Below, one piece after another: positions 3,268 to 62,000 of a stretch of 64,000 bases of DNA. The position numbers and the translations under genes are program-made. The DNA comes from Acidimicrobiales bacterium. GTDB taxonomy: Bacteria > Actinomycetota > Acidimicrobiia > Acidimicrobiales > Aldehydirespiratoraceae. The stretch lies in contig OZ220491.1 of the NCBI GenBank assembly GCA_965116195.1, positions 1,085,080 to 1,149,079 of the forward strand, written 5' to 3'. Under the pieces are notes generated by a model. The model was not told where the DNA came from. It made no database searches and worked only from the letters and a program-made list of their open reading frames with translations. How positions within the stretch are numbered: the first letter of the stretch is position 1; each line of letters starts with the position of its first letter.

Positions 3268-3400
3268 ACATGGGTATGACACGGCGGGATTCCTCAGATG
3301 TCACGGCACCGCGAGACCATGGGTACGTGGGCACGGCACGGCGGGATTCCTCAGATGTCGCAGCGCCGCGCGATCATGGGCCTGTGGGTATGACATCGCT
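3268..3400. repeat. 57-bp tandem repeat x ~2.3; the last copy contains the ATG (3390) of the downstream CDS
   Basis: GGGTATGACA occurs at 3272 and 3386. ACGGCGGGATTCCTCAGATGTC occurs at 3281 and 3338. The period is 57, which is 19 codons and in frame. Confidence 0.85.
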
Positions 3401-12879: not shown

Positions 12880-13245
12880 CATGTGCGCGGCGTGCAAGTT
12901 GTTGGTCGGTCGGTTGCTCTGCTCGGTGGGGGCCGGACAACCCAGTGACACTTGTGCGCGGCGTGCAAGTTTGTTGGTCGGTCGGTTGCTCTGCTCGGTG
13001 GAAGCGGTGCAACCTGGTGACACTTGTGCGCGGCGTGCAAGTTTGCCCGTCAGTCGGTTGCTGTGCTCGGTGGAAGTGGTGCAACCTGGTGACACTTGTG
13101 CGCGGCGTGCAAGTTTGTTGGTCGGTCGGTTGCTCTGCTCGGTGGGGGCCGGACAACCCAGTGACACTTGTGCGCGGCGTGCAAGTTTGCCCGTCAGTCG
13201 GTTGCTGTGCTCGGTGGAAGTGGCGCAGTTGTCTGCGGCCGAGTC
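12880..13245. repeat. 72-bp tandem repeat x 5 (two alternating variants)
   Basis: CTTGTGCGCGGCGTGCAAGTTT occurs at 12951, 13023, 13095 and 13167, plus a leading copy. This accounts for all the overlapping ORFs between 12670 and 13289. Confidence 0.92.
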
Positions 13246-17198: not shown

Positions 17199-17632
17199 AA
17201 GAGAAACTCAACACACGGTACGCTTGCTACAGGTCGGCCGTCGCATTTGTCCCCGTTGCCAATGTCGGAGTTGCTATGCTGGTGTTTGATGTCCTCACCT
17301 AGAGACTCTCCAGAACGTCCGCCCGATCCTGAAGGCCCGCCGCCATCGAACGAACAGGTGACACGGGATGGATCGGGTGACGATCGGCCTTTGATGCGTC
17401 AGTAGTCTTGTAGGCAAGCCCACTTGCCCGAATGTTGGTCTGTCCGGGTCCAATAGTTACCGTATCTACATAGGTTGCTATGTGGTGAGCCTATATGCTG
17501 TCTACATCTAGTGGCAGGAGTTGTCCAACGGTGCTGCCTTGGCGTGAATGCGTGACGTGAACGCGTAAGTCGGCGAAGGTGCTCTGGTTGAGGAACATCG
17601 GCGAGCTCCACCGCTTGCGGTATGCTGATCCG

Positions 17633-19777: not shown

Positions 19778-21162
19778 TGAACGCATACCCTAGCTATCGC
19801 AACAGCGGTGTGGATGTGCTCGGCGAGGTTCCTGAGCATTGGAAACTTCGGTTGCTTAAGCATGTAGCGTCGTACCGTACTAGCAGTGTAGACAAGAAGG
19901 CATCTGACGGTGAGATACGCGTTAGGTTATGTAACTATACTGACGTCCACGATAGGGATCGTATTCGGATAGACGAAGGCGACTTTATGATAGCAACTGC
20001 ATCGCCGTTGGAACTGTCTCGCTTTAAGTTGGCTGTGGGTGACGTTCTTATTACCAAGGATGCCGAAATCGGAGTACCGGCACTTATCGAGGAGGTTTCC
20101 GATGATTTTGTTTGTGGATATCATCTCGGAATTGTTAGACCTAATGATCCAACATATTCAGGATTTGTGTTTTGGATGATACAATCAGCCGGCACCCGTT
20201 GGTACTTTAGAGGTTGCGGTGTCGGAGTTACTTTGATGGGGTTGCCTACCTATGCAGTAGTCAACCTTCCTTGCGCCGTTCCGCCGGTGGAAGAGCAGCG
20301 GGCTATTGTTGAGTATCTTGATGGTGAAACCGAGAAGATTGATACCTTGGTGGCGAAGAAGCGACTGCTACTGGAACGGTTGGCTGAGTATCGCAAGGCT
20401 CTGATCACTGGTGCGGTGACTCGCGGTCTGCCACCCGAGGTTGCGCTGGCTGCTGGGTTTGATCCGTCACCGCCGCTCAAGCCTTCGGGTGTGGATTGGC
20501 TTGGAGACGTTCCCGCTCACTGGGACGTTCGGCAACTCGGGCGAATTGGTGTGTTTTTCAAGGGAGCAGGTGGCACCAAGGAGGATGAAATCGAAGCGGG
20601 CTTGCCATGTGTTCGATACGGAGATCTTTACACTTATCATCAGTGTTTTGTGAAGGATACACGTGCTGACATTAGAGCTGAAGTAGTCGTATCGTACCGT
20701 GAACTTCGTTATGCCGATGTCTTGTTTGCTGGTTCCGGCGAGACGATTGAAGACATAGGTAAGTCTGCTGTTAACCTTATTGATGGTCCTGCCTACTGTG
20801 GCGGTGACGTGATCGTGCTTCGTCCTTGTATCGAGGTGGATGCTACCTTTCTCGGATATGCGACCGACTGCCATATCGCTACCTACCAGAAAGCTTGTAT
20901 GGGTCGAGGTGTAACCGTGATGCACATCTACAGCAGTGAACTCAAGTACCTGATTATTCTGCTGCCGCCGGTGGAGGAGCAGCGGGCGATTGCTGCGTTT
21001 CTTGATGAACGTACTGGGCGGATTGATCGGTTGTGCTTGAAGGTTGAGGAAGCGATTGAACGGTTACATGAGTATCGGACAGCGCTGGTGACGGCGGCAG
21101 TCACCGGCAAGATTGATGTTCGGGATGTACCCGCAGTCAAGGCCAAGAGTGTCAACAAATGA
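19774..21162 (+). CDS. hsdS: Type I restriction-modification system, specificity subunit (two target-recognition domains)
   Basis: 462 aa. ATG overlaps the hsdM stop (ATGATGA). Two conserved helical spacers: PPVEEQRAIVEYLDGETEKIDTLVAKKRLLLERLAEYRKALITGAVTRG and PPVEEQRAIAAFLDERTGRIDRLCLKVEEAIERLHEYRTALVTAAVTGKIDV. Confidence 0.93.
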   Translation: MMNAYPSYRNSGVDVLGEVPEHWKLRLLKHVASYRTSSVDKKASDGEIRVRLCNYTDVHDRDRIRIDEGDFMIATASPLELSRFKLAVGDVLITKDAEIGVPALIEEVSDDFVCGYHLGIVRPNDPTYSGFVFWMIQSAGTRWYFRGCGVGVTLMGLPTYAVVNLPCAVPPVEEQRAIVEYLDGETEKIDTLVAKKRLLLERLAEYRKALITGAVTRGLPPEVALAAGFDPSPPLKPSGVDWLGDVPAHWDVRQLGRIGVFFKGAGGTKEDEIEAGLPCVRYGDLYTYHQCFVKDTRADIRAEVVVSYRELRYADVLFAGSGETIEDIGKSAVNLIDGPAYCGGDVIVLRPCIEVDATFLGYATDCHIATYQKACMGRGVTVMHIYSSELKYLIILLPPVEEQRAIAAFLDERTGRIDRLCLKVEEAIERLHEYRTALVTAAVTGKIDVRDVPAVKAKSVNK

Positions 21163-24100
21163 CGAAGCAGACGACGGAGTATGCGTTCGAGTCTGTGGCA
21201 GAGTCGATGCTTGTAGAGGGAGGTTGGCGTGTAGGTGACCGGGCGGAGTGGGATGTGGAACGGGCGTTGTTCCCTGAGCGTGTGGTTGCCTTCATTGAAG
21301 CTACGCAGACTGAGTTGTGGGCGCAGTTGACTCAGTTGCACGGGGACACCCTTGCCGAGTCGTTGATGGAGCAACTGGTTCGCGAACTGGACACCAAAGG
21401 AACTCTGGAGGTGATACGTCGTGGGTTCAAGTTCTGGGGCAAGACGCTGAAGTTGGCGTACTTTCGTCCGGCGCACGGCTTGAACCCCGAGGCGCAGGCA
21501 CGGTTCGAACGCAACGAACTGACTGTCACTCGTCAGATACGGTGTCATCCCGGCAAAGGTGACACGGTGGATATGGTGCTTGCGCTCAACGGACTACCGA
21601 TAGCGACCTGCGAACTCAAGAACCCCATGACCGGCCAGAGCTGGCGCAACGCAATCCAGCAGTATCGCAATAATCGGGATCCCGGCGTGGCTCTGTTTCG
21701 TTTTACCAGGCGTACTCTTGTGCATTTTGCGGCGGATTGCGATGAGGTGCATATGACGACGCGCCTTGCCAAGAACAAGACCCGCTTCCTGCCATTCAAC
21801 CGAGGTAGCGCGCCAGGCGAAGTACGCTGCGGAAAGGGCAACCCGGCTCACTCGTCGGGATATCGCAGTGGCTATTTCTGGCGGGAGGTTCTTCAGCGTG
21901 AGAGTTTCTTGGACATTGTGGGTTCATACATCTTTGTGGAGTCTCGCACCGAGAAGGTCTACGGTGCCAAGGGCGCACGCACTGAGACTCACAAGACCCT
22001 GGTGTTTCCTCGCTATCACCAACTTGACGCAGTTACCAAGCTCATTCACGCTGCCCGTGGTGACGGGCCGGGGCGCAACTATCTGATCCAACATTCTGCA
22101 GGCAGTGGCAAAACCAACAGCATTTCATGGTTGTCGCACCGCTTGGCGAGCCTGCACACCACCGAAGACCAGAAGGTCTTTGACTGCGTGGTGGTGATCA
22201 CCGACAGGCGTGTGCTGGATCAGCAGTTGCAGCAGGCGATCTATCAGATTGAACACACCCACGGTGTCGTCAAGGCCATTGAACAAGACTCCCAGCAACT
22301 CGCCGAGGCCCTTGTTGACGGCACCAAGATCGTGATCACCACGCTTCAGAAGTTCCCGTTTGTGATGCGGCGACTGCTGATGATGGCTGGCGCAGAAGGC
22401 GACACTCCAACGGCTGCGCAAGCCCAACAGGCCGAACAGTGGCGCACTCAGATCGCTCAACGGAAATACGCAGTGATCGTGGACGAGGCACACTCAAGCC
22501 AAAGCGGCGAAAGCGCTCGCGAGATGAAAGCAGTACTTGGAGCACGCTCCCAAGCCGCTCAAGCCGAAGCCGAAAGCGGTGAAGCAGACTGGGAGGACAG
22601 CCTCAACGCAATGATGGAGTCACGGGGCGCGCAACCCAACTTGTCATTCTTCGCGTTCACGGCCACCCCCAAAGCCAAGACCATCGAATTGTTCGGCGCA
22701 GTGGGTAGGTCGGGCAAGCCGGAGCCGTTCCATGTTTACAGCATGCGTCAAGCCATTGAGGAAGGGTTCATTCTTGATGTGTTGAGCAACTACACCGACT
22801 ACAACACCTACTTCCGACTGTTGCAGCAGGCGGAGGAGGATGAGGATTTTCCCAAGCGTCGTACGTCTCGTGCTCTGGCGAGGTTTGTGAGCTTGCACCC
22901 GCACAACCTCGCCCAGAAGACAGAGGTGATCGTTGAGCACTTCCGCAACCACATCCGGCACCGCATCAACGGCAAAGCCAAAGCCATGTTGGTCACCTCG
23001 TCCCGATTGCATGCGGTACGTTACATGCAAGCCTTTCAGCAATACATCAAAGATCGTGGCTACACCGATGTGTACCCACTGGTCGCATTCAGCGGGACCG
23101 TCACCGATCCCGATACCGGCGAGGAGTTCACCGAGCCGTCAATGAACATTGATGTCGTCACAGACAAGCCGATCAGCGAAGCTGCGTTGCCGAGTCGGTT
23201 TGCTTCACCCGACTACCAGATACTGCTTGTGGCCGAGAAGTACCAGACCGGGTTTGACCAGCCACTGCTGCAAGCGATGTATGTGGACAAACGGCTTGAC
23301 GGGGTGCAGGCCGTGCAGACACTGTCACGACTCAACCGCACCGCTACGGGCAAGCAGGCCCCCTTCGTGTTGGACTTTGTCAACGATCCTGAGGACATTC
23401 GAGCTGCCTTCGAGCCTTACTACGACCAGACCCAACTGGAGGATCGCTCCGACCCCTATCAACTCAACAGGCTCCAGCACCAACTTGACATGGCGCAGGT
23501 CTATCACGATGTCGAAGTTCTGGCGTTTGCGCAGTTCTTTTTCCGTGCTCCCATCCAGCAGCGACCCGACGACCACGCCCAGCTCGAAGCTGCACTCCAG
23601 CCTGCGTGTGACCGCTTTGATGCGCTTGACGAAGAGCATCAGAGCGAGTTTCGTGACCGGCTCAGTGCGTTTGTGAACCTCTACACATTCCTGAGTCAGA
23701 TCATCCCCTACACCGACAGTGACTTTGAACGTCTGTACGCGTTCGGCAAGGCTCTGTTGCCACGTCTGCGTCCCGATCGTGATGCGGTTCGTCTGGCTGA
23801 TGACATCGAACTTGAGTACTACCGGCTTCAGAAGCGCTCGTCGGGCAGTATCAGTCCCGGAGATGATGACGAAGCCACAGTCAAACCACCCACAGAGGTC
23901 GGTACCGGTGACCCCGAAGAGCCCACCGCACCGCTGTCTGAGATCATTGAGCGTCTCAATGACCGGTTCGGCACCGACTTCACCGACTCAGACCGCTTGT
24001 TTCTCCAACAAATCCAACACGATGCCATCAACCAGGAGGACATCCGCCGCATCGCCTTGGCCAATCCGTTCGACAAGTTCAGCCTCAGTATCCGACCACA

Positions 24101-24260
24101 ACTCGAAGGACTCCTGATCAAGCGCATGGCCGAAAACGACTCTCTCGTGTCCCGGACTTTCAACGACCCCGAGTTTCAGGAAATCGTCTACAGCGGACTC
24201 CTGCAAGCGATCTTCGATTCCGTTACCGAAAAAGACGAACCAGCCAGCCTCAACGTTTGA
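21159..24260 (+). CDS. hsdR: Type I restriction-modification system, restriction/helicase subunit
   Basis: 1033 aa. ATGA overlap with hsdS. Walker A HSAGSGKTNS and DEAH box VIVDEAHSSQ. N-terminal nuclease-like region. Confidence 0.93.
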   Translation: MTKQTTEYAFESVAESMLVEGGWRVGDRAEWDVERALFPERVVAFIEATQTELWAQLTQLHGDTLAESLMEQLVRELDTKGTLEVIRRGFKFWGKTLKLAYFRPAHGLNPEAQARFERNELTVTRQIRCHPGKGDTVDMVLALNGLPIATCELKNPMTGQSWRNAIQQYRNNRDPGVALFRFTRRTLVHFAADCDEVHMTTRLAKNKTRFLPFNRGSAPGEVRCGKGNPAHSSGYRSGYFWREVLQRESFLDIVGSYIFVESRTEKVYGAKGARTETHKTLVFPRYHQLDAVTKLIHAARGDGPGRNYLIQHSAGSGKTNSISWLSHRLASLHTTEDQKVFDCVVVITDRRVLDQQLQQAIYQIEHTHGVVKAIEQDSQQLAEALVDGTKIVITTLQKFPFVMRRLLMMAGAEGDTPTAAQAQQAEQWRTQIAQRKYAVIVDEAHSSQSGESAREMKAVLGARSQAAQAEAESGEADWEDSLNAMMESRGAQPNLSFFAFTATPKAKTIELFGAVGRSGKPEPFHVYSMRQAIEEGFILDVLSNYTDYNTYFRLLQQAEEDEDFPKRRTSRALARFVSLHPHNLAQKTEVIVEHFRNHIRHRINGKAKAMLVTSSRLHAVRYMQAFQQYIKDRGYTDVYPLVAFSGTVTDPDTGEEFTEPSMNIDVVTDKPISEAALPSRFASPDYQILLVAEKYQTGFDQPLLQAMYVDKRLDGVQAVQTLSRLNRTATGKQAPFVLDFVNDPEDIRAAFEPYYDQTQLEDRSDPYQLNRLQHQLDMAQVYHDVEVLAFAQFFFRAPIQQRPDDHAQLEAALQPACDRFDALDEEHQSEFRDRLSAFVNLYTFLSQIIPYTDSDFERLYAFGKALLPRLRPDRDAVRLADDIELEYYRLQKRSSGSISPGDDDEATVKPPTEVGTGDPEEPTAPLSEIIERLNDRFGTDFTDSDRLFLQQIQHDAINQEDIRRIALANPFDKFSLSIRPQLEGLLIKRMAENDSLVSRTFNDPEFQEIVYSGLLQAIFDSVTEKDEPASLNV

Positions 24261-24456: not shown

Positions 24457-24661
24457 CATCTCCCCGCGGGGGAGGGGGGCGTTGCGGCCTGGCCTCGTGG
24501 ACGGCGTGTCCCCTGGGTCATCTCCCTGCGGGGGAGGAGGGCATTGCCTGTTACAAATGCTCTCAAGCTCAGCATCTCCCCGCGGGGGAGGTGTCTCAGC
24601 ACCCTTCTCGCCGTTGATCATCCACCAGTCACCCTCGCATCTCCCCGGGTGGGTTACTACC
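24457..24661. repeat. Four copies of a ~29-bp hairpin-containing repeat separated by unrelated 25-37 nt segments (CRISPR-like or REP-like)
   Basis: CATCTCCC(C/T)GCGGGGGAGG(G/A)GGGC(G/A)TTGC occurs at 24457 and 24519. 3'-diverged copies occur at 24573 and 24638. The core CTCCCC-GCG-GGGGAG is an inverted repeat. Confidence 0.6.
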
Positions 24662-24689: not shown

Positions 24690-24890
24690 GATCCTCCCAG
24701 GGAGCGGGTGCTAACCACATTGTGCCTCGAACCCCGGAAGCACAGCAATCCTGCTCCCAGGGGGCGAGTGCTAACCACATTGTGCCTCGAACCCCGGCAG
24801 CACAGCAATCCTGCTCCCAGGGGGCGAGTGCTAACCACATTGTGCCTCGAACCCCGGCAGCACAGCAATCCTGCTCCCAGGGGGCGGACT
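24690..24890. repeat. 60-bp tandem repeat x ~3.3
   Basis: GTGCTAACCACATTGTGCCTCGAACCCCGG occurs at 24708, 24768 and 24828. Confidence 0.92.
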
Positions 24891-29015: not shown

Positions 29016-29152
29016 GATGACTCCTGGGGTGTCGGATTGGTCAAGGACCACAGTACACAGGCACACTGACAGCACCCTTGTGACATACGTATCAATACCG
29101 GGTGGCTCTCGCCCATGTGACCGATCAGAAGGTTCGCGTTTGAACCGATCTG

Positions 29153-29340
29153 GTGCGATGGTTGCGGTGTGGCGGTTGGCTGTGCATGTGGTGTAGTTGC
29201 AAGTCGGTGGCAAGGATCATCAAGGGTGCGATGGTTGCGGTGTGGCGGTTGGCTGTGCATGTGGTGTAGTTGCAAGTCAGTGGCAAGGATCATCAAGGGT
29301 GCGATGGTTGCGGTGTAGGGGTTCGCTGTGCACGCTTAGG
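29153..29340. repeat. 73-bp tandem repeat x ~2.6 filling the divergent region between paralog B and trmI
   Basis: GTGCGATGGTTGCGGTG occurs at 29153, 29226 and 29299. Confidence 0.92.
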
Positions 29341-31966: not shown

Positions 31967-32470
31967 ATGGCCGTAACCGATGAACTGCTGTCCAACAATG
32001 CAGGCTATGCCGAGAACTTCGACAAGGGTGAGCTGCCCCTCCCGCCTGCGCTCGGGCTGGCTGTCGTGGCGTGTATGGACGCGCGTCTGGACACGCACGC
32101 GTTGCTCGGCATCAGCGAAGGGGACGCTCACGTGATCCGCAACGCCGGGGGCGTTGTGACCGATGATGTGATCCGTTCCCTGACGATTTCGCAGCGCCTG
32201 CTACAGACCAACTCAGTCATGCTCATCCATCACACGGACTGCGGCATGCTCACCTTCCGCGACGATGATGTGAAGGACTCGATCACCGCCGACACAGGCA
32301 TTCGGCCGACCTTCTCAATGGAAGCGTTCCAAGACCTTGATGACGACATCAGACAGTCGATTGCCCGCATCAAGGCGAGTCCGTTCATCCCGAACAAAGA
32401 CGACATCCGCGGGTTTGTCTACGACTGCGCAACGGGCAGGCTGAACGAGGTCACACAACCAGCGACCTGA
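31967..32470 (+). CDS. Beta-class carbonic anhydrase
   Basis: In-frame part of ORF 31886..32470. AAAGGAG SD. Motifs VVACMDARLD and HHTDCGM (Cys-His-Cys zinc ligands). Confidence 0.9.
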   Translation: MAVTDELLSNNAGYAENFDKGELPLPPALGLAVVACMDARLDTHALLGISEGDAHVIRNAGGVVTDDVIRSLTISQRLLQTNSVMLIHHTDCGMLTFRDDDVKDSITADTGIRPTFSMEAFQDLDDDIRQSIARIKASPFIPNKDDIRGFVYDCATGRLNEVTQPAT

Positions 32471-32992
32471 AGCGCTTGGAACAAGCCACGGCGACTACCG
32501 TTGTTGCTGCGGGTTCAATGAGGTCACACAACCGGCGACTTGGAGCGCTTGGAGCAAGCCACGACGGCTACTGTTGTTGCTGCGGGTTCATTGAGGTCAC
32601 ACAACCGGCGACTTGGAGCGCTTGGAGCAAGCCACGGCGACTACTGTTGTTGCTGCGGGTTCATTGAGGTCATACAACCGGCGACTTGGAGCGCTTGGAG
32701 CAAGCCACGGCGACTACTGTTGTTGCTGCGGGTTCATTGAGGTCATACAACCGGCGACTTGGAGCGCTTGGAGCAAGCCACGGCGACTACTGTTGTTGCT
32801 GCGGGTTCATTGAGGTCATACAACCGGCGACTTGGAGCGCTTGGAGCAAGCCACGGCGACTACTGTTGTTGCTGCGGGTTCATTGAGGTCATACAACCGG
32901 CGACTTGGAGCGCTTGGAGCAAGCCACGGCGACTACTGTTGTTGCTGCGGGTTCATTGAGGTCATACAACCGGCGACCTGGAGCGCTTGGCC
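32447..32992. repeat. 73-bp tandem repeat x 7.5; the first unit is the 3' end (EVTQPAT-stop) of the carbonic anhydrase gene
   Basis: GAGGTCA(C/T)ACAACC occurs at 32447, 32520, 32593, 32666, 32739, 32812, 32885 and 32958. Only the first copy keeps CCTGA (stop); the others read CTTGG. Confidence 0.95.
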
Positions 32993-33223: not shown

Positions 33224-34030
33224 CTACCGGGGTTGGTCCGCGGGGCGGTAGTCGATGTTGCGATCCACGGCCATATAGATGTCGTTACCGATGGGATCGG
33301 CCAGTTCTTCGGCGAGGTGGCCCAGCAGACCTGCGCAGCGTGCCAGTAACGCCACCCCACGGGTCACGCCCAAAGGCAGGCCCACATCGGCGAGAACTGC
33401 CCCGCAGGTACCGGCCCCGTTCAGGGGCAGCTTCCTGGAAAGCACAGCGGGATGGACGCGCCCGATGGCCGCGAACAACTCCAGGTGAGGGCCGAACAGA
33501 TCGTTCCGGCGGGCCAACTTGAACAGTACCGGCGTGCGAGGATCGCCTTGTTTGTGTACCGGGTGTCCCAGGCCAGGCACGAACCGACCCGAGGCTCGGG
33601 TCTCGCTGACGACTTTCGTGGCCAGAGCGTCCCAGCCGTCATCATCGCTGGGCAGCCGGTCACAGCCATCAAGCGCGGTGTGCAGGAAACGAGCCGCGTT
33701 CTCGGTCACTCCCAGAAAGCGGTCACCACCCCCCAACAGACCGGACGCGAGCGCTCCCTGGATCGACTCGGGCGCGCTCAGCAGCGTCACCCTCGCGGCG
33801 ATGGCGGTGGGGGTGAAGCCGTGGTCGGCGAGGGCGACCAGCACAGCCTCAAACATGTTGCGCTGCTGGGGCGTGGGGCGTCGCTTGGCCATGAGCCAGT
33901 AGGCAAGTTCACCAAAGGACACCTGGCCCATGAGTTCATCAGCCAAGCTGTGACCCAGCACGGTGATGCTGTCGGCATCAGAGACACCGAGGCCGGTGCG
34001 GTAGGCGGGGGTTGCGGGAGTCATGGTCAC
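33224..34030 (-). CDS. Citrate synthase-like / citryl-CoA lyase family protein
   Basis: 268 aa. Motifs GLGHPVHKQGDPR and LNGAGTCGAVLADVG. Confidence 0.7.
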   Translation of the reverse strand: MTMTPATPAYRTGLGVSDADSITVLGHSLADELMGQVSFGELAYWLMAKRRPTPQQRNMFEAVLVALADHGFTPTAIAARVTLLSAPESIQGALASGLLGGGDRFLGVTENAARFLHTALDGCDRLPSDDDGWDALATKVVSETRASGRFVPGLGHPVHKQGDPRTPVLFKLARRNDLFGPHLELFAAIGRVHPAVLSRKLPLNGAGTCGAVLADVGLPLGVTRGVALLARCAGLLGHLAEELADPIGNDIYMAVDRNIDYRPADQPR

Positions 34031-34245
34031 AGCCCGCTTCGATAGGCAAGGGTTGTGGTGGTCATGGTCATGAGCCTGTTGCTGTGGGCGGGGTTTGTGG
34101 GAGTCATGGTCACAGCCCGCTTCGATAGGCAGGGGTTGTGGTGGTCATGGTCATGAGCCTGTTGCTGTGGGCGGGGTTTGTGGGAGTCATGGTCACAAAG
34201 CCCGTTGCAGTAGGCAGGAACCTGTCGGTGATCGTCAGTCACTCT
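34018..34245. repeat. 83-bp tandem repeat x ~2.7 copying the start codon and first ~12 codons of the citryl-CoA lyase-like gene
   Basis: GAGTCATGGTCAC occurs at 34018, 34101 and 34184. Confidence 0.92.
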
Positions 34246-38357: not shown

Positions 38358-38700
38358 GGCGCAACAGAGTTCCCGCAACTTGTCAGGGCGAGGGACGAAG
38401 GCATGACAACCAGCAAGTGGGGTCTGCTTGGGCGCGACAAAGCTCCGGCAATTTGTCAGGGTGAGGGTTCTGAGTGCGTTGGCTGGCTTTCTGGGAATAG
38501 AGGGCGCAACAGAGTTCCCGCAACTTGTCAGGGCGAGGGACGAAGGCATGACAACCAGCAAGTGGGGTCTGCTTGGGCACTACAAAGTTCCCGCAATTTG
38601 TCAGGGTGAGGGTTCTGAGTGCGTTGGCTGGCTTTCTGGGAATAGAGGGCGCAACAGAGTTCCGGCAACTGTCAGGCTGAGGGCCGAGGGCCTCAGGCCG
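38358..38700. repeat. 145-bp tandem repeat x ~2.3 (internally two ~72-bp half-units); the last copy runs into the 3' end of the intradiol dioxygenase gene
   Basis: GGCGCAACAGAGTTCC occurs at 38358, 38503 and 38648. The half-unit CCGCAACTTGTCAGGGCGAGGG / CGGCAATTTGTCAGGGTGAGGG is offset by 72. Confidence 0.9.
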
Positions 38701-47807: not shown

Positions 47808-49208
47808 ATGACTGAGCATCGGGCGCAGGCGCTGACAGGAGAGGCCAGCGGGTACTCGCACGATTGTCGGCGCTGTTGCAATCGGGCGCAGGCGCTGATA
47901 GGAGAGGCCCTTGCCGAGCGGGTGACGCGCCTCGGCCACACCCTCCAGGCGAGCGGCGTGGCGGTCACTGTTGCCGAGATCATTGACGCCTCTGCGGCGG
48001 CGACCTACGTGGAGCTGGGCTCTCGCGAGGAGTTTCGAGCAGCCCTGAAGGCCACCCTTGTCAAGAGCGAGCGCCATCTGGCCGTCTTTGATGCTGTCTT
48101 TGACCGGCTGTTTCCGCTCAGCGGGACCGTTGGTGCCGGTGTTGCTGCACCCACCGCTGGGGACGCGGCGAGCGTCATTGCCCATGACGGCGACACGGCG
48201 GCGCTGGCAGCACGTCTGGTGGATGAGCACGGAGGTTTTGAGGGTGTGATGCGAGGTGAGCAACACCATCTTCAGCGTGTGCTGCGTGCCGCTGACCTGG
48301 CTCGGCTGATGAGCGATGCCCGCAAGACAAACCCGGAGTTGACGGCTGTGGAACTGCGGGAGCGCATTGAACGCCTCAAGCAACTCATGGCAGCCGAGGT
48401 GCGCTACCGCCTGGGGGAATCCTGCGACTCCGGTGTCACCGGTGACACCGACCAAGCCGCAGATGACACGGCGGTGCAGGACATCGAGTTTCTGAACGCC
48501 AGTCGAAGCCAGCTCGAGGAAATACGTGAGTCTGTCAGACCTCTGGCCCGAAGGCTTGCGGCGCGCCTGGCTCGGCGCAAACAATCCCGTCGTGGTCGCA
48601 ACGTCAACTTCCGCCGCACGGCCCGCTGGTCTCTCGCCACCGGTGGTACGCCGATTGATGTGGCCTACCAGCGAGCGCGCTTGCACAGGCCGGACCTGTA
48701 TGTGCTCTGTGACATCTCGGGCTCGGTGGCGCACTTCTCGGTGTTCACGCTGACGCTGATGTCCGCGCTCTCTGCTGAGGTGGCCAGGTGCCGTTCATTT
48801 GTGTTCGTTGATGCCGTTGACGAGGTCACCGGTCTGCTCGCCGCCACCGGCCACGGCATTGAACCCTGGCAGATCATGCGCAACACCAACGTGATCGCGG
48901 CTGACGGACACTCCGACTACGGAGCGGTACTGAACCAGTTCTGGGACGAGATCGGTGACCGGGAACTGCGACCCAACTCAACACTGTTGATCACGGGTGA
49001 TGCCCGAACGAACTACCGCGAGACGAGGGCCTCAACTCTTGAGGCGATCTCCGGTCGATGTCGCGCCGTGTACTGGTTGAATCCCGAGCCCCGCCAGGAC
49101 TGGGACACCCACGACTCAGAGATGAGCACCTATGCGCAGCACTGCACAGCTACGTTTGAGGTGCGAACGGTGCGACAGCTTGTCAGCTGTGTGGAAGAAC
49201 TGCTCTGA
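47808..49208 (+). CDS. vWA domain protein, CoxE-like
   Basis: 466 aa. MIDAS-type VLCDISGSVAHFS and LLITGDARTN. The start is uncertain because the first ~35 codons lie in a 63-bp duplication (ATCGGGCGCAGGCGCTGA(C/T)AGGAGAGGCC at 47818 and 47881). Confidence 0.75.
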   Translation: MTEHRAQALTGEASGYSHDCRRCCNRAQALIGEALAERVTRLGHTLQASGVAVTVAEIIDASAAATYVELGSREEFRAALKATLVKSERHLAVFDAVFDRLFPLSGTVGAGVAAPTAGDAASVIAHDGDTAALAARLVDEHGGFEGVMRGEQHHLQRVLRAADLARLMSDARKTNPELTAVELRERIERLKQLMAAEVRYRLGESCDSGVTGDTDQAADDTAVQDIEFLNASRSQLEEIRESVRPLARRLAARLARRKQSRRGRNVNFRRTARWSLATGGTPIDVAYQRARLHRPDLYVLCDISGSVAHFSVFTLTLMSALSAEVARCRSFVFVDAVDEVTGLLAATGHGIEPWQIMRNTNVIAADGHSDYGAVLNQFWDEIGDRELRPNSTLLITGDARTNYRETRASTLEAISGRCRAVYWLNPEPRQDWDTHDSEMSTYAQHCTATFEVRTVRQLVSCVEELL

Positions 49209-49475: not shown

Positions 49476-49919
49476 CGTGTGGCTGTACCTCTCTTATCAG
49501 GGCAGGTCTCTCAGCGGGCCCGTTGGCTGCGTGGTGTCTGCGTGGGTTGGGATTGAGGGTTTGTGGGTCAGGGCCTGCCGAGTGAACTTCGACTGCGGGA
49601 CAGCATAGCGAGGTGCAACGAGGACCGGACGGGCAATCTCGGACGAATTTGTTTCTGGGAGACCCGCCCCGTCGGGCAGAGGTACTTTACAGGGATTATG
49701 CAAGCGAGACAGATGCTGCGAGACCTGCCCTGTCGTTCAGTGGCCCCAGCGCAGCCAAGATCGCACCGCAGGCGACGGCGGCGACAACCGATTTGCGCCC
49801 ATGACTGACACGTTGTCGGGTTCGTTGGTGTCGGCTGCCACGAGACCGATGGCGGCGACAACCGATTTGCCCCCACGATTGACAGTCTCAGCGCTTCCAT
49901 CGGCATAAGGTAGAAGAGT

Positions 49920-50271
49920 GTCCCGCTTCCCATGCACAGGAGGTGACCCATATGCCCAGGGCCTCGCACTCGGCCCCATATTCCCTCGCCCCCCATGCGC
50001 AAGAGGCGCGGTGATGCAGGTGCAATGGCAGTCCGGGCTGTCATGTCACACCTCTACGTTCCGCTCCCCTTGCGCAGGAGGTGACGAGGTGAGCGGCTCA
50101 TCGGGAGCCGGTCAAGTTGCGTCCGCCCCCGTTGCGCAGGAGGTGACCCGGACCGCATCACACGTGGGTACTCACCTTCGGGTCCGCCCCCGATGCGCAG
50201 GAGGTGACCGGAGCCTGTGTGGCGACCAGTTGGGGACTGGTAGTCCGCCCCCGATGTGCAGGGAGGTGACG
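49920..50271. CRISPR. CRISPR-like array: 6 repeats of 28-31 nt (consensus GTCCGCCCCCGATGCGCAGGAGGTGACC) with unrelated 32-34 nt spacers (one of 46 nt); orphan, with no cas gene in the window
   Basis: Repeats at 49920-49948, 49981-50011 (degenerate), 50058-50086, 50121-50148, 50182-50209 and 50243-50271. The period is 61-63 for the four best copies. Alternative readings are a structured leader or a decayed tandem duplication of the arc 5' end. Confidence 0.4.
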
Positions 50272-50272
50272 G

Positions 50273-52033
50273 GTGAGCGGCTTTGATGATGCGCACAACT
50301 TTGACGAAGCGCACCACGATCCAGCACTGACACGTCGCAGGCTGGCCGAGTTGCAGAGTGAGGTCACGTCTCTGAAGCGACGTCTCCAGGACGCCTCCAA
50401 GCGGGCGCGCGCCATGGAGCAGCGTGTCTTCGAGAACAAGGGCAGGCTCTCACAGGCGGTGTCACAGAACGAGAGGTTGACCGCCATGCTGCGCGATGCC
50501 CGCGAGCACATCAGCACGCTGCGTGAAGAGGTGGAAAAGCTCACGCAGCCACCGAGCGGTTACGGGACCGTGCTTGATCACAACGACGACGGAACGGTTG
50601 ATGTGCGTTGCGGAGGACGAAAGATGCGGGTGGCGGCACAGCCCGAACTGCTCAAGGAGTTGCGTGTCGGTGACCAGGTGGTGCTGAACGAATCGTTCAG
50701 TGCGATCATGGCGCTGCGCCCTGACCGCACAGGCGAGGTGGTCACGGTAAAGGAACTCCTGCCCGGTGGTGACCGTGCGCTGATAGTCGGCTCGGCTGAT
50801 GAGGAGCGGATCGTGCAACTCGCCGAGAGCGTGAAGCAGGAACCGATCCGCAGTGGTGACAACGTGCTCGTGGACTCCTCAGCTGCCCTGCTGATAGAGC
50901 GCCTGCCACGGCCCGAGGTGGAGGATCTCGTGCTGGAAGAGGTCCCCGACATCAGCTACGTGGACGTGGGCGGGCTTGACACCCAGATCGAGCAGATCAC
51001 CGACGCTGTGGAGCTGCCGTTCGTGCATCAGGCGCTGTTCGCCGACTACGACCTTCCTGCCCCCAAGGGCGTGCTGCTCTACGGGCCCCCCGGCTGCGGC
51101 AAGACCCTGATTGCCAAGGCTGTTGCCAACAGTCTGGCCCGCAAGGTGTCGGAGGTGTCCGGTGACACCAACGCTCGCAGCTATTTCCTCAACATCAAGG
51201 GTCCCGAACTCCTCAACAAATACGTCGGCGAGACCGAACGACAGATCCGGCTGGTGTTTCAGCGTGCCCGCGAGAAGAGCGAGCAGGGCTGGCCTGTGAT
51301 CGTGTTCTTCGACGAGATGGAATCGCTGTTCCGCACCCGTGGCTCGGGGATCAGTTCGGACATCGAGTCGACGATCGTGCCCCAGTTGTTGGCCGAGATC
51401 GATGGTGTTGAGGCGTTGCGGAATGTGATCGTCATCGGTGCGTCCAACCGTGAGGACCTGATAGACCCCGCGATCCTGCGTCCCGGGCGTCTTGATGTCA
51501 AGATCAAGATCGAACGTCCCAATGCCGAGGCAGCCGCCGCGATCTTCTCCCGCTACCTGGTGCCGACACTGCCCATAGCTGCTGAGATGGTCGAGACGGT
51601 CGGTGGTGGCGATCCGGACAAGGCCGTCCGAGCCATGATCGAACAGACGGTCGAGGACATGTACCGACCGGTTGACGACAATCAGTTCCTGGAGGTCACC
51701 TACCAGAACGGCGACAAGGAGATCATGTACTTCCGCGACTTCGCCTCGGGGGCCATGATCGAGAATGTCGTGCGACGGGCCAAGAAGCTGGCGATCAAGC
51801 GCGAGATCGCGGGCGGGGAGCGTGGCATCGCCCTGGTTGACCTGTCGGCTTCGGTCCGCCAGGAGTTCAAAGAGCACGAAGACCTGCCCAACACGACCAA
51901 CCCGGACGACTGGGCCCGGATCTCGGGCAAGAAGGGCGAACGCATCGTCTTTGTGCGCACACTGGCCTCAAGCGAGGACCTCGTCTCGGGGGGACGCTCA
52001 ATCGAGAGGGTCCAGACCGGCCAGTACCTGTGA
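50273..52033 (+). CDS. arc: Proteasome-associated AAA ATPase (ARC/Mpa)
   Basis: 586 aa. N-terminal coiled coil, Walker A GPPGCGKT, Walker [10 protein letters not shown], and the C-terminal GQYL proteasome-docking motif. Confidence 0.96.
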
Positions 52034-56986: not shown

Positions 56987-57039
56987 CTGTGGGGAAGCGT
57001 TCAGCCACCGAGCGTTCGACCACTGAGAGTTTGGCCACG

Positions 57040-57255
57040 GAGGGTTTGGCCACCGAGGTCAGTTTGCGACCGGTGCAACAGTCAGCATCGCAGAGTTTAG
57101 CCACCGAGGGTTCAACCACCGAGGTCAGTTTGCGACCGGTGCAACAGTCAGCATCGCAGAGTTTAGCCACCGAGGGTTCAACCACCGAGGTCAGTTTGCG
57201 ACCGGTGCAACAGTCAGCATCGCAGAGTTTAGCCACCGAGGGTTCAACCACTGGG
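57040..57255. repeat. 66-bp tandem repeat x ~3.4 inside the ABC operon (between the permease and ATPase genes)
   Basis: GAGGTCAGTTTGCGACCGGTGCAACAGTCAGCATCGCAGAGTTTAGCCACC occurs at 57055, 57121 and 57187. Confidence 0.92.
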
Positions 57256-57358
57256 GTCAGTTCGTCGGCCTGTTCCACGAGATGGAGTCGGAGGATGCGG
57301 CTGGCCGGTCTTGTTGTCAACAGAAATCACTTTGTCAGACAGAAAAAGGAGTATTGCC

Positions 57359-58138: not shown

Positions 58139-58315
58139 CCAGCCTGAGAACCCTGGACCCCACACCCGTCGCGGGTTGTCCCTTGGCCGACCCGAGCCTG
58201 CCGGGTGTAGCTGTAATCCGCCCCCGCTTGGCGGGTTCAGCTTGGTGTGACTTGTCCCAACCTCGGCTGGCCGAACGAAGATGATCACTCCCAACCACAA
58301 GTCGGCCAAGCCGTG

Positions 58316-59833
58316 ATGACTGTTCCCAAGACGCTCGGACTCGAGACCGAGTACGGGATCGTGCATCGTGGGGCACCAGAACCCAACCCGATGTTGGCGT
58401 CATCGCTTTTGATCAACGCTTATCTGCTTGCCACCGAGCAGACTCCCGAGCGTGGGGGTTGGACTGTCAGGTGGGACTTCGCTGATGAGACACCCGGCAA
58501 TGATGCCCGTGGTGGCGCGCCTGCGGACTCACAGCCACCCCAGGTTGAGACTCATCTGGTGAACGCGGTGCTCACCAACGGAGCACGCTACTACGTGGAC
58601 CATGCACATCCCGAGATGTCAACACCGGAATGTGCGGATGCCCGCTCGGCACTGCTGTATGACCGTGCCGGCGACTTGATTGCTGTTCGTTCCATGGAAG
58701 CTGTGCGGATGCTGTTGTCACCCGATGAAGAGATCATCGTTTACAAGAACAACTGCGACGGTCGGGGCAACAGCTACGGCTGTCACGAGAACTATCTGAT
58801 CAGCCGCTCGGTTCCGTTTTCACGTGTTGTCACGAATGCGACCGCACACTTCATCACCCGATCTGTCTTCACAGGCGCAGGCAAGGTGGGCTTTGAGGCC
58901 TGTGGTGTGCGCCTTGATGAGTCCGGCTTTCAGATAACTCAACGTGCTGACTTCATCGAGGAGGAAGTCGGGCTTGAGACGACACTCAAGCGTCCCATCA
59001 TCAACACACGTGACGAACCGCACGCTGATCCCGCCAAATACCGACGCCTGCATGTGATAGTCGGTGATGCCAACATGGCCCAGGTGGCGACCTTTCTGAA
59101 GTTGGGCACGACCGCATTGGTGATGGCCATGACCGAGGACGATGCGCTGAGTCGAAGGTGGCACTTTGCGTCGCCGGTCAATGCATTTCATGAAGTCAGC
59201 CGCGATCTGACATTGCGCCGGGGCTTGCAGCTGGCTGACGGTACGACCGTCACGGCGCTGGACGTGCAATGGGAGCTGTTGTCTGAGGCCCACGCCTATG
59301 TGCAGCAGCGTGGCGTGGAGGCTGTGGGTGGCGAAGTGGCCCTTGAGGTGCTGCAACGTTGGGAGTCCGTGCTCGGCGGACTGGAGCGTGATCCGATGGA
59401 GATGGCCGCTCAGGTTGACTGGGTGGCCAAACTCCGGTTGCTTGAAGGTTTGCGTGAACGTCATGGCCTTGGCTGGAACAGTCCTCGGCTCAGGGTGCTG
59501 GATATTCAGTATCACGACCTGCGTCCCGAGCGTGGGCTGGCAGCGCGGGCACAACTGGAGGTGCTGGTGTCTGATGCCGAGGCGCAGCGAGCCGTGACTG
59601 AACCTCCGAGTGACACCAGGGCGTTCTTTCGTGGTCGCTGTTTGCAGCACTTCTCAGCCGATGTGGTGACGGCAAATTGGGATTCGATCGTTTTTGACGT
59701 GGGAGAGGGTTCGCTGCGGCGGGTGTCGATGGTGGAACCGAACCGGGGGACTGCGGCTCATGTGGGTGAACTCTTTGAGGACTGCGATTCGGTCAAGGAA
59801 CTACTGCGCCGCTTGGCAGCCCAGAGGGAGTAG
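58316..59833 (+). CDS. dop: Pup deamidase/depupylase
   Basis: In-frame part of ORF 58247..59833. LGLETEYG N-terminus of the PafA/Dop family. Called Dop because it lies immediately upstream of pup-prcB-prcA. Confidence 0.85.
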   Translation: MTVPKTLGLETEYGIVHRGAPEPNPMLASSLLINAYLLATEQTPERGGWTVRWDFADETPGNDARGGAPADSQPPQVETHLVNAVLTNGARYYVDHAHPEMSTPECADARSALLYDRAGDLIAVRSMEAVRMLLSPDEEIIVYKNNCDGRGNSYGCHENYLISRSVPFSRVVTNATAHFITRSVFTGAGKVGFEACGVRLDESGFQITQRADFIEEEVGLETTLKRPIINTRDEPHADPAKYRRLHVIVGDANMAQVATFLKLGTTALVMAMTEDDALSRRWHFASPVNAFHEVSRDLTLRRGLQLADGTTVTALDVQWELLSEAHAYVQQRGVEAVGGEVALEVLQRWESVLGGLERDPMEMAAQVDWVAKLRLLEGLRERHGLGWNSPRLRVLDIQYHDLRPERGLAARAQLEVLVSDAEAQRAVTEPPSDTRAFFRGRCLQHFSADVVTANWDSIVFDVGEGSLRRVSMVEPNRGTAAHVGELFEDCDSVKELLRRLAAQRE

Positions 59834-59944
59834 CTGATCGGATTCCCTCGTACACGCCTGAGACCTTGTGTCGCTCGGGAGTGCAGGGGGCGTAGCCTGC
59901 ATGGGTGCTACCGCGTTTTGGAGTCAACATCAGGAGGAATCGTC

Positions 59945-60139
59945 ATGGCTGAACGGGAGCAGATCCGCAGGCCGTCACCTGCTTCAAGGGACCGGTCTGT
60001 GGAGCAGTCACCGCCCACATCCGATCGGGGCACTGACCTCAAGGCTCAGCTGGATGACCTGCTGGACGAGATTGACGAGGTGCTCGAGAGCAATGCCGAG
60101 GACTTCGTCAAGAGCTACATCCAGAAGGGTGGAGAGTGA
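59945..60139 (+). CDS. pup: Prokaryotic ubiquitin-like protein Pup (C-terminal GGE)
   Basis: AGGAGGA SD. 64 aa, ending LDDLLDEIDEVLESNAEDFVKSYIQKGGE. Confidence 0.95.
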   Translation: MAEREQIRRPSPASRDRSVEQSPPTSDRGTDLKAQLDDLLDEIDEVLESNAEDFVKSYIQKGGE

Positions 60140-61044
60140 CGCTGCTGCGTTTTGCGCCCCACGAGGACCCGGGCCCTGACTTTGCCGCGCTGCTGCGTCG
60201 CAGCGCGTTTGACAAGTCGCGGTCAGTCGCCGATGGTGCGGGGGCCTTTGGTACTGCTGGTGTCGGTGGTGTTTTGGGTGCTGCTGGTGTGACGGGTGCC
60301 TCGACTGCTTCAGCTACAGCAGCAGCGTCATTGTTGTCTGAGGAGATTCGTCACGGAACAACCTGTGTGTCGGTCTGCTACGGCGGCGGGGTTGTGCTGG
60401 CCGGGGACAGGCGCTCCACATCCGGCCACCTGATCAGCAATCATCGCATTGAGAAGGTGTTTCCCGCTGACCGTCATTCCGGTGTGGCGATTGCTGGTGC
60501 TGCCGGGCCTTCCATTGAGATGGTGCGCCTGTTTCAACTCCAGTTGGAGCATTACGAGAAGGTGGAGGGCACGCCCATAAGTCTTGAAGGCAAGGCCAAC
60601 CAACTCGGGCAGATGGTGCGTGCCAATCTGCCGGCGGCCATGCAGGGGCTGGTCGTGGTGCCGATATTTGCCGGCTTTGACGTGGTGGCGGGCCGGGGTC
60701 GTATCTTTGAGTATGACGTGACCGGTGGTCGCTACGAAGAGCGGGATCATGCTTCGACAGGATCAGGGTCGTTGCACGCCGACACTGTGGTGAAGTTGGG
60801 CTTTCGACCGGCGATGTCCAAAAGCGCTGCGGTTGACCTGGTGCTGGAAGCACTGTTCGTGGCTGCCGACGCTGACTCCGCCACCGGTGGGCCTGACCCG
60901 GTGCGGGACGTGTTCCCGGTGGTTGCGGTGATCAACTCCGAGGGTTACGAGCGTCTTGGTGACCGTGAGTTGCGCCGCCGCACCGAACGGATGCTGAACC
61001 GGCATCGCACCCGTCGAGGTCAAGACCCCGGCAGTGGATCGTGA
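60136..61044 (+). CDS. prcB: Proteasome beta subunit with a long propeptide
   Basis: GTGA overlap with pup. Mature N-terminus predicted at HG/TTCVSVCYGGGVVLAGDRRST. Confidence 0.93.
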   Translation: MTLLRFAPHEDPGPDFAALLRRSAFDKSRSVADGAGAFGTAGVGGVLGAAGVTGASTASATAAASLLSEEIRHGTTCVSVCYGGGVVLAGDRRSTSGHLISNHRIEKVFPADRHSGVAIAGAAGPSIEMVRLFQLQLEHYEKVEGTPISLEGKANQLGQMVRANLPAAMQGLVVVPIFAGFDVVAGRGRIFEYDVTGGRYEERDHASTGSGSLHADTVVKLGFRPAMSKSAAVDLVLEALFVAADADSATGGPDPVRDVFPVVAVINSEGYERLGDRELRRRTERMLNRHRTRRGQDPGSGS

Positions 61045-61310
61045 CAATCGAGTCGTTGTTGTCGGTCACGGTCATGCACGCCGAGTCGTGGTCAGCACCC
61101 CGGCAGCGGGTCGTAGCATTCCGTCATTCGCCATGTGTGCGGCATCGGCTGCGGAGTGTCGGATTGAGACTCCCGCAGCGGTTCGTGACCTCTGAGGGCC
61201 GGTCGGCAGCGGGATTTTCGTCGGCGCTGGGGCAGAGGTAATGTTCTCATTGGTGGTCATGGTTCTCCGTGTAGTGGGATTTCCGTTGATGCTGGGATTG
61301 GGGTAAGGCA

Positions 61311-62000
61311 ATGACCATGCCGTTCTATGTAGCGCCTGAACAGATGATGAAGGACCGGGCCGATTACGCCCGCAAGGGGATTGCTCGTGGCCGCAGTCTT
61401 GTGGCTTTCCGCTTTCAAAATGGTGTCGCTATCGTAGCAGAGAATGCCTCAAGCACGCTTCGCAAGGTCAGCGAGATTTATGACCGGATTGCCTTTGCGG
61501 GTGTGGGCCGTTACAACGAGTTTGATCAACTGCGTATCGCAGGTGTGCGTCACGCCGACCTGAAGGGGTTTGCCTTCAGCCGTGAGGATGTGGATGCGCG
61601 CAGCCTTGCCAACGCTTATGCCCAGAGCCTGGGGCAGGTTTTCACCCATGATCTCAAGCCGATGGAGGTGGAGATTCTGGTTGCCGAGGTTGGCTTGGAT
61701 GCCGCTGGGAAGAACGACCAGTTGTTTCACATCCTCTATGACGGCACCGTGATGGATGAGGATGACTGGGTGGTGTTGGGTGGTGAGACCGAGGCCATAT
61801 CGGAGCGCTTCGCCGAGGCGCTGCCAAAGGCCCCGAGGTTACTGGCTGGCGGAGTGCGGGCCGCAGTAAGTGCCCTGGCAGGACCCGATCGAACCCTCGA
61901 CGCCGCAAGCCTGGAAGCCGCCGTGCTGGACCGCCGCAACGGTCGCCGCGCCTTCCGCCGACTAACCGACGAAGAAGTCTCCACCCTGCTGTCCACCTAA
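61311..62000 (+). CDS. prcA: Proteasome alpha subunit
   Basis: 229 aa. MTMPFYVAPEQMMKDRADYARKGIARGRSLVAF. Confidence 0.93.
   Translation: MTMPFYVAPEQMMKDRADYARKGIARGRSLVAFRFQNGVAIVAENASSTLRKVSEIYDRIAFAGVGRYNEFDQLRIAGVRHADLKGFAFSREDVDARSLANAYAQSLGQVFTHDLKPMEVEILVAEVGLDAAGKNDQLFHILYDGTVMDEDDWVVLGGETEAISERFAEALPKAPRLLAGGVRAAVSALAGPDRTLDAASLEAAVLDRRNGRRAFRRLTDEEVSTLLST

Follow-up and report, generated by a model that had tools for sequence, protein, structure and literature searches.

The repeat array in front of arc, the gene for the proteasome-associated AAA ATPase, is best explained overall, and with reasonable if not high probability, as a 5' leader that expanded where it stands through events of duplication plus filler insertion, rather than as a CRISPR. 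The arc leader (49921-50271) carries six copies of a 28-nt motif with the consensus GTCCGCCCCCGATGCGCAGGAGGTGACC, whose start-to-start distances from R1 to R6 are 63, 75, 62, 61 and 61 nt. R5 is identical to the consensus, R4 differs from R5 at one of 28 positions, R6 deviates by C15T, one additional G and a G at its last position, and R1-R3 are more degenerate copies, R2 being the worst. The initial annotation had already described these six repeats, and its coordinates hold, as do the substitution and extra G that it recorded in R6. Semi-global alignment gave z scores of 3.4-13.5 for every pair of repeats and of at most 1.1 for every pair of spacers, in agreement with the earlier description of the spacers as mutually unrelated; the lengths of the first two, given there as 32 and 46 nt, are corrected to 35 and 47 nt because the edges of R2 are fuzzy, and the other three (34, 33 and 33 nt) are unchanged. 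The sole exception among the spacers is the start of S3, where the first 12 nt (AGGTGAGCGGCT) match the arc start (GGGTGAGCGGCT) at 11 of 12 positions in register, an echo that had also been noticed before. The 3' end of R6 lies 1 nt before the arc GTG (50273) and, as had been proposed, R6 carries the Shine-Dalgarno (SD) sequence of arc (GGAGG at 50262-50266, 6 nt upstream of the GTG); the arc product has Pfam matches to proteasomal ATPase OB domains and AAA. Within the window, by which we mean the whole 64-kb stretch of DNA that was analysed, a 25-nt repeat probe with up to 3 mismatches matched R3, R4 and R5 only, with 0 matches in 100 shuffles. Tandem Repeats Finder at its lowest score threshold did not report the arc array, because only half of each unit recurs. 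The features of the locus are as follows.

49773..49884, + strand: second, independent repeat-filler-repeat structure upstream of the arc promoter, with 38-nt copies at 49773-49810 and 49847-49884 (34/38 identical) separated by 36 unrelated nt
49906..49911, + strand: -10-like hexamer TAAGGT, from the conservation of TA.GGT in 11 aligned Acidimicrobiia loci
49921..49948, + strand: R1, apparently the oldest UTR copy, SD intact (GGAGG 49939-49943), located where the single UTR of relatives begins
49949..49983, + strand: S1, unrelated 35-nt filler; contains ATG 49952 of a 20-codon uORF with stop TGA 50012-50014
49984..50011, + strand: R2, most degenerate copy, SD reduced to AAGAGG
50012..50058, + strand: S2, unrelated 47-nt filler; ATG 50014 opens a 90-codon frame ending at 50286
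50059..50086, + strand: R3, UTR copy, SD intact
50087..50120, + strand: S3, 34-nt filler; 12 nt copy the arc start (GTG 50089 plus AGCGGCT), the other 22 nt are unrelated
50121..50148, + strand: R4, apparently young copy, one difference from R5
50149..50181, + strand: S4, unrelated 33-nt filler
50182..50209, + strand: R5, apparently young copy, equal to the consensus
50210..50242, + strand: S5, unrelated 33-nt filler
50243..50271, + strand: R6, probable arc-proximal master copy and working ribosome-binding site of arc (GGAGG 6 nt before GTG)
50273..52033, + strand: arc (mpa), proteasome-associated AAA ATPase (Pfam), GTG start kept in relatives

The origin of the repeat became apparent from the arc loci of relatives. 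The best Arc homologues are from metagenome-assembled Acidimicrobiia, and the closest one with a name, from a sponge-associated Candidatus Aldehydirespirator sp., is 88% identical. All close relatives have a small ferredoxin gene on the opposite strand upstream of arc, and the ferredoxin-arc intergenic region measures 797 nt here vs 238-366 nt in relatives. Alignment of 11 Acidimicrobiia loci revealed an invariant TA.GGT about 30 nt upstream of the arc start codon; TANNNT is the -10 form of actinobacterial sigma-A promoters. Relatives have 27-28 nt between this box and the arc start codon, terminating in AGGAGGTGA. Four of them with Arc proteins 85-86% identical (L003, L084, L085 and L086) have one UTR copy and no repeat, and the repeat consensus of our array aligns with the single UTR of L084, GGCCGCCGCTACCGCAGGAGGTGATCT, before the GTG. 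Among about 47 relatives with a placeable arc start, a second UTR copy is found in L004 alone, 62 nt upstream and right after the box (L004, whose Arc is 88% identical, is the same stretch as L001). The multi-copy array is absent from most relatives, and on these alignments the 28-nt repeat can be identified as the orthologue of their native single-copy arc 5'UTR. This UTR is about 55-70% conserved between species, the conserved part being essentially the SD half. No spacer is common to our array and L004 or L005.

In the same alignment the TA.GGT box stands directly before R1 here and directly before the single UTR elsewhere. Since TAAGGT lies just before R1, the whole array amounts to an expanded arc leader of about 355 nt, in which R1 would be ancestral with respect to the promoter and R6 with respect to the start codon, with five spacer-plus-repeat units between them. 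Judged solely by this conserved hexamer, arc transcription would start about 7 nt downstream of TAAGGT, at roughly 49918-49920. A sigma-70 promoter and terminator scan of the ferredoxin-arc intergenic region yielded no sites, the consensus search being empty because there is no -35 box.

The differences among the copies point to stepwise growth of the array at its arc-proximal end. Adjacent repeats are the most similar pairs in semi-global alignment, and the substitutions relative to R5 are nested, with T1 and T7 common to R1 and R3, C11 to R1-R3, and T12 to R3 and R4. This is the pattern expected if new units copy the evolving arc-proximal copy, and the array would then be a stack of fossil copies of the arc UTR. 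R1, R3 and R4 together show 12 differences from R5, and 10 of these lie in positions 1-12, in the non-SD half, which varies between species as well (binomial estimate for the skew about 0.005). The SD half of the old copies shows about 7 changes vs about 9 expected neutrally, in a rough count over six short sequences, and thus gives no sign of the upstream copies being maintained; R1-R5 are most simply read as neutral relics. The perfect AGGAGGTGA in all intact upstream copies could, on the other hand, reflect selection instead of youth. In the event that produced R3, 12 nt of arc coding sequence were copied along with the UTR and only 22 nt are unrelated filler, with the period still at 62.

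We therefore reconstruct the history as follows, from sequence comparison. An ancestral arrangement of TA.GGT box, an approximately 28-nt UTR ending in AGGAGGTGA and the GTG of arc would have undergone five successive events, each adding one 28-nt UTR copy and 33-47 nt of unrelated DNA, with the additions made at the arc-proximal copy. The product would be a promoter that abuts R1, an arc gene that abuts R6, and an mRNA leader of about 355 nt with six SD-like sites, among which R6 alone would be positioned to start arc. R1-R3 would be decaying fossils of earlier UTR states that incidentally start short uORFs.

Two lines of evidence bear on how such units arose, the spacers themselves and the rest of the window. 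S4, S5 and the 5' end of arc align no better than shuffles, though R4 and R5 are 27/28 identical, and similarity drops sharply, from about 96% identity to noise, at the edges of the R4 and R5 repeats. The spacers were unrelated to each other at birth. When they were searched against the window and all relatives' loci, the only hit was a marginal one, 14 nt of S3 at 10448-10461 (E=0.005 for a single spacer searched against the 64-kb window, in a run of six sequences).

At the level of the window, the repeat-filler pattern recurs. We counted 24 partial direct-repeat pairs outside full tandem arrays in the 64 kb vs 0 in each of five random Markov sequences of the same dinucleotide make-up. At least 12 other loci show their own locus-specific repeat, an unrelated segment of about 30-38 nt, and the repeat again; the pairs are sharp-edged and their repeats are about 90-100% identical. 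The window is also rich in tandem arrays with periods of 57-98 nt. The repeat and filler lengths (nt) by position are listed here.

30354: repeat 30, filler 31
24457: repeat 29, filler 33, within a four-copy array
47818: repeat 29, filler 34
8597: repeat 35, filler 30
31604: repeat 36, filler 33
3867: repeat 37, filler 35
10129: repeat 35, filler 38, repeats 35/35 identical
38358: repeat 37, filler 36, and repeat 38, filler 34, later doubled as a 145-nt block
49773: repeat 38, filler 36, just upstream of the arc promoter
35514: repeat 22, filler 44
42475: repeat 27, filler 50

The youngest arc units and three other loci have 28-30 nt plus 31-34 nt, six loci have 35-38 nt plus 30-38 nt, and other events are 23/50, 22/44, 27/50 and 40/22. 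The fillers have the base composition of the genome. They showed no similarity to their own flanks, no donors were found for them within the 64-kb window, and three fillers from other, younger events had no match in IMG/VR. A tandem-duplication origin in which fillers are decayed flank copies was rejected for 15 of the 16 events tested, and patchworks of flank words were no more frequent in the fillers than in random genomic 34-mers. Several events span a gene start or the junction between two genes.

Such pairs are almost absent from 406 kb of loci from 80-odd relatives, with the exception of the nearest relative (L001/L004), which has three in a 21.7-kb stretch. Two of these three coincide in location with events in the window: one affects the arc UTR, the other the 5' end of the VWA-domain gene nearby. 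In the window, the 5' end of this gene has a 29-nt repeat and a 34-nt filler, so that RAQAL(T/I)GEA is duplicated around 12 codons; in the nearest relative the repeat is 36 nt and the filler 30 nt, and LERLAGEAVAER is duplicated around 10 codons. Six other VWA-domain homologues (434-442 aa) have a single copy. Shared ancestry with the nearest relative's array was rejected at the VWA-domain gene alone, where the duplicated segment and the period differ, and by this comparison the two events there clearly appear independent. The arc events would be part of a wider mutational process, rampant both here and in the nearest relative, that would duplicate about 22-40 nt and leave about 30-38 nt of non-local DNA between the copies, frequently at the 5' ends of genes. 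This agrees with one of the proposals of the initial annotation, that the array is an extreme case of a 5'-end duplication process, and both the window-wide pattern and the nearest relative lend it support. That two genomes were hit at the same two places could also point to a further factor that targets them.

Two rival explanations can be weighed against this background. Plain tandem duplication of a 61-nt unit (the UTR plus the first 33 nt of arc), with spacer halves that decayed and repeats kept alike by conversion or selection, draws on real features: S3 opens in register with 11 of the first 12 nucleotides of the arc start region, the genome abounds in true tandem arrays (periods of 57-98 nt), and the array at 3242-3412 has a perfectly conserved block adjoining a diverged block. 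We nonetheless regard it as very improbable, since repeats 96% identical beside spacers at random level contradict a plain tandem duplication of 61-nt units. R4 and R5 are 4% apart while S4, S5 and the 5' end of arc are at random level with sharp edges, a contrast beyond what drift can produce. Conversion tracts would have no reason to end at one base every time, and selection cannot explain the contrast because the UTR is only about 55-70% conserved between species, essentially in its SD half, so that selection is not holding all 28 positions. The initial annotation had argued that a decaying tandem duplication would not leave the repeats conserved and the spacers unrelated, and the figures for R4 and R5 (27/28 identical, against random-level spacers) bear this argument out and put it in numbers.

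The second explanation is a leader under selection, in which six SD repeats and uORFs tune arc translation through standby or loading of ribosomes, through uORF coupling, or through sequestration of the SD by the C-rich half of the repeat. Several features would suit it. AGGAGGTGA is kept in 5 of the 6 copies, start codons stand 7-8 nt downstream of the SD in R1, R2 and R3, and the stop of the first uORF (49952-50014) overlaps the start of the second (50014-50286) as TGATG. The long uORF, which can also be entered at the copied arc start (50089), stops at 50286, 11 nt past the arc start, so some translational coupling is possible; and the repeat can fold a hairpin (-8.6 kcal/mol) between CCGCC and the GGUG of the SD. 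That hairpin, however, is no better than shuffles, the fold of the leader is not significant (z = -1.6), and neither the consensus repeat on both strands nor single units are significantly stable. Rfam at the gathering score returned nothing relevant over the whole window, and on the leader with E up to 1 gave one chance snoRNA match alone. A 122-codon frame (49918-50286) spans the array, and as a protein it was rejected: its codon-position GC is flat (0.68/0.66/0.66), Pfam gave no match, and it is open by chance in 5% of shuffles (p ~0.05). Decay is seen in the oldest copies, above all in R2; more than one copy occurs in none of the relatives examined except L004, which has two; and the same type of structure occurs at loci without an SD. 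We therefore consider selection for six copies improbable. The proposal of a repeat-built regulatory leader survives in that the array does belong to the arc leader, with R6 as the native ribosome-binding site, but not as regards selection on the extra copies, given the lack of significant RNA structure or Rfam matches, the approximately neutral decay, and relatives that manage with one copy. The uORFs are probably translated by accident, and the arc array itself is probably neutral, a by-product in which the final unit is nothing more than the native ribosome-binding site.

The likeness to CRISPR is close enough to need its own account. The six 28-nt copies, three near-identical and three degenerate, recur at regular intervals and are within the 23-47 nt of CRISPR repeats, and the spacers of 35, 47, 34, 33 and 33 nt are mutually unrelated, as unique CRISPR spacers are. 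Type I-E CRISPR in particular has a 28-29-nt repeat and a 32-33-nt spacer, and the arc array resembles it in its near-identical 28-nt direct repeats, its unique 33-35-nt spacers at a 61-63-nt period, and its apparent one-ended growth, the repeats becoming more degenerate with distance from that end. It differs in that the arc repeat is the gene's own 5'UTR with its Shine-Dalgarno and not a dedicated repeat family, in that the array lies between promoter and start codon and not behind an AT-rich leader, and in that many other window loci share the architecture with different repeats of variable length. No Cas family was among the matches listed from Pfam and PADLOC for 110 ORFs of the 64 kb, 43 of them predicted genes and 67 additional frames, in accordance with the earlier observation that the window has no cas gene. 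What the scans did list in the window includes a type I restriction-modification system, AbiEii and a MunI-like enzyme. Further copies of the 28-nt repeat, sought in the 64-kb window and in the JGI metagenome collection, were not found. Spacer matches, which had been suggested as a check, were likewise not found: the array had a best E of 0.3, on a repeat, against 50,697 phage records and no match against 72,556 plasmids, and no exact 24-27-mers of the spacers occurred in IMG/VR, with the coverage of sponge-symbiont phages probably poor in all of these collections.

That the array is the degenerate remnant of a functional CRISPR array which lost its cas genes and by chance ended beside arc, as the initial annotation had considered, is therefore extremely unlikely in spite of its regular repeats and unique spacers of CRISPR-like size. 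The decisive point is the orthology of the repeat to the single-copy arc UTR of array-free relatives. In addition, the repeat copy in the best condition is the one on which selection acts, as the ribosome-binding site of arc, the array occupies precisely the interval from the conserved promoter box to the start codon, the window-wide architecture is shared by other loci, and the searches gave no Cas among the window families listed, no other repeat copies and no spacer matches. A different connection to CRISPR would be a neo-CRISPR, in which Cas1-Cas2 acted off-target on the arc UTR and other sites, duplicating a pseudo-repeat around an inserted prespacer and growing the array at one end. Off-target integration by Cas1-Cas2 over-expressed in E. 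coli is reported to spawn new arrays (Nivala, Shipman and Church 2018, as cited in bioRxiv 10.1101/148544 and PMC11788318), and CRISPR-Cas genes are enriched in sponge-symbiont Actinobacteriota (PMC11706023). In such neo-CRISPRs, non-CRISPR sequence duplicated around a spacer-sized insert becomes a repeat, at many sites that can seed arrays, which resembles the arrangement here. The youngest arc units combine a 28-nt repeat with a 33-nt spacer, and 28 + 33 = 61 is exactly the geometry of type I-E adaptation, a regularity that generic repair error does not predict. Like geometry is seen at 30354 (30+31), 24457 (29+33) and 47818 (29+34), the second group has 35-38-nt repeats with 30-38-nt fillers, and both length sets are typical of CRISPR; sharp edges, unique fillers of tight size and repeats that degenerate away from the growing end fit as well.

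We still judge off-target integration by Cas1-Cas2 rather unlikely, and favour a replication or repair error, most likely one in which a small duplication is closed up with filler DNA that was captured or copied. Repair error is preferred because the duplicated length varies over about 15-40 nt (including 23/50, 22/44 and 27/50), so that no single ruler fits; because events can include flanking coding sequence, the R3 event having taken 12 nt of arc with a filler of only 22 nt; because the same two positions are affected in two genomes despite diverged target sequences, which points to position rather than sequence as the determinant; and because the genome shows general repeat instability. 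No Cas is among the window families listed, no protospacers were found in the collections searched, and the filler composition equals that of the host genome. The density, at least 12 loci in 64 kb, would be unprecedented and is far above anything known to have been reported, the duplicated lengths are not uniform, and the integrase here is hypothetical. It is doubtful that this genome records hundreds of natural births of CRISPR-like mini-arrays with inserts of about 33-36 nt, made by Cas1-Cas2 or another integrase; the arc leader would then be a case with six repeats, made out of the ribosome-binding site of the gene itself.

Known repeat families and repair signatures share only some of these properties. 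Supply et al., in 1997 and 2000, reportedly described MIRU units of 40-100 bp that carry small ORFs with stops and starts overlapping the neighbouring genes. The arc array is like the MIRU/VNTR of mycobacteria in its period of 61-63 nt and its intergenic position between promoter box and arc start, where it is presumably transcribed, but MIRU are whole units placed head to tail, whereas the arc array repeats 28 of about 61 nt and the rest is unique; one MIRU family occupies about 40 loci, and here each locus has its own repeat. MIRU/VNTR units are tens of bases long and lie mostly between genes, where they are presumed to be transcribed as parts of operons (PMC3635867). In animals, polymerase-theta-mediated end joining produces small tandem duplications with junctional insertions after aborted repair synthesis, and such duplications accumulate genome-wide when a repair function is defective (PMC8654963). 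They have in common with our events the extra DNA at the junction between two copies, but they are eukaryotic, span 100 bp to 10 kb and have flank-templated inserts; here the sizes are 22-40 nt, and the fillers carry no more flank words than random genomic 34-mers. We know of no bacterial counterpart of duplication with junctional insertion.

For annotation, the arc locus presents an array that CRISPR finders would flag, yet one made from a gene's own 5'UTR, and the test that gives it away, which asks whether the repeat is orthologous to a host feature present once in relatives, is generally applicable. The array itself can be read as a dated series of fossil versions of a single ribosome-binding site. 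More interesting than the array is the unusual mutational process in a sponge symbiont that would have produced it. This process would duplicate a short segment and add about 34 nt of filler that looks foreign; it frequently affects the 5' ends of genes, and two genomes show it at the same sites. Should this filler prove to be captured DNA placed by an integrase, the genome would show CRISPR-array genesis in nature, and the mini-array births would give the first natural, genome-wide view of CRISPR-type arrays arising from ordinary sequence. If the pattern is instead a repair signature, it would be a bacterial counterpart of the duplication-with-junctional-insertion signatures of repair-defective eukaryotic cells. 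On either reading, the process would create leaders, upstream ORFs and N-terminal extensions in bulk.

Beyond the six-copy leader array of the proteasome-associated ATPase gene arc, the window carries further repeat structures, several of which are built on unrelated intervening segments:

8550-8722, nested structure in which the sequence 3' of the last repeat copy recurs two periods upstream (d = 137)
10085-10256, nested structure of the same kind (d = 146)
24457-24655, four-copy array of the palindromic motif CATCTCCCCGCGGGGGAGG, with unrelated spacers and spacings of 62, 54 and 65
24694-24886, perfect 60-nt tandem array that comes after the palindromic array
38358-38691, higher-order array, a 37-nt repeat alternating with two unrelated fillers of 34-36 nt
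3242-3412, 12882-13220, 29152-29332, 32447-32990, 33997-34197 and 57026-57262, examples of tandem arrays (period 57-98 nt)

The palindromic array lies downstream of a type I restriction gene, and its motif is lengthened to 29 nt in copies 1 and 2. At 38358-38691, a 145-nt dimer of repeats and fillers was duplicated afterwards (94% matches by Tandem Repeats Finder, with the two 145-nt copies 97% identical in the direct-repeat search), and a fifth repeat copy and a third filler follow the duplicated dimer. The two nested structures show the pattern seen in the third spacer of the arc array, whose first 12 nt copy the arc start; this pattern suggests a series of events whose boundaries shifted. 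The tandem arrays of 57-98-nt period reach an exceptional density in the window, several of them overlapping gene starts. Crude gene calls leave about 37% of the window outside genes, a coding density that is unusually low among bacteria.

Repeats also lie within coding sequence and were compared with those of relatives:

47818-47909, in-frame repeat-filler-repeat (a direct repeat around an unrelated segment) at the 5' end of a VWA/CoxE-like gene, RAQALTGEA, 12 codons, RAQALIGEA
L001 656-757 (= L087 7656-7757), its counterpart in the nearest relative, LERLAGEAVAER, 10 codons, LERLAGEAVAER
50285-50320, 18-nt tandem duplication inside arc, near its 5' end, GATGATGCGCACAACTTT / GACGAAGCGCACCACGAT, 13/18 identical

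The two VWA/CoxE-like structures occupy the same place in the gene with different sequences, and other homologues have one copy and are ~30 aa shorter; the 5' end of this gene is thus one site at which repeat-filler-repeat has recurred independently in the window and in the nearest relative. The duplication in arc encodes a 12-residue stretch, which corresponds to just one D(D/G)A(H/P)N in relatives.

Other features of the window, some of them shared with relatives:

17579-24260 and ORFs near 25-28 kb, defence island
49600-49613, short motif AGCATAGCG, also at ~2842-2852 in L001 (nearest relative), at ~2833-2843 in L003 and in L084 and L085 (close relatives with a single arc UTR)
58247-62000, remaining Pup-proteasome genes, ~6 kb downstream of arc

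In all close relatives AGCATAGCG is kept between arc and the divergent ferredoxin gene amid otherwise unalignable sequence, and it may serve the latter as a promoter or operator element. An ABC transporter operon separates arc from the remaining Pup-proteasome genes, which comprise a Pup-ligase family gene, pup, and prcB and prcA (assigned by synteny with L087, from the nearest relative), in the same order as in the relative. The defence island encodes the M, S and R subunits of a type I restriction-modification system, and it also includes matches to an AbiEii-like toxin and to a type II enzyme resembling MunI.

Upstream repeats are found in sponge-associated Candidatus Poriferisodalis as well:

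L033 902-990, L040 936-987 and L041 926-991, 72-nt-period repeat with a 36-nt sub-period

In all three loci it lies ~500 nt upstream of the arc gene, and repeat-rich intergenic DNA may be a common trait of sponge-symbiont Acidimicrobiia.
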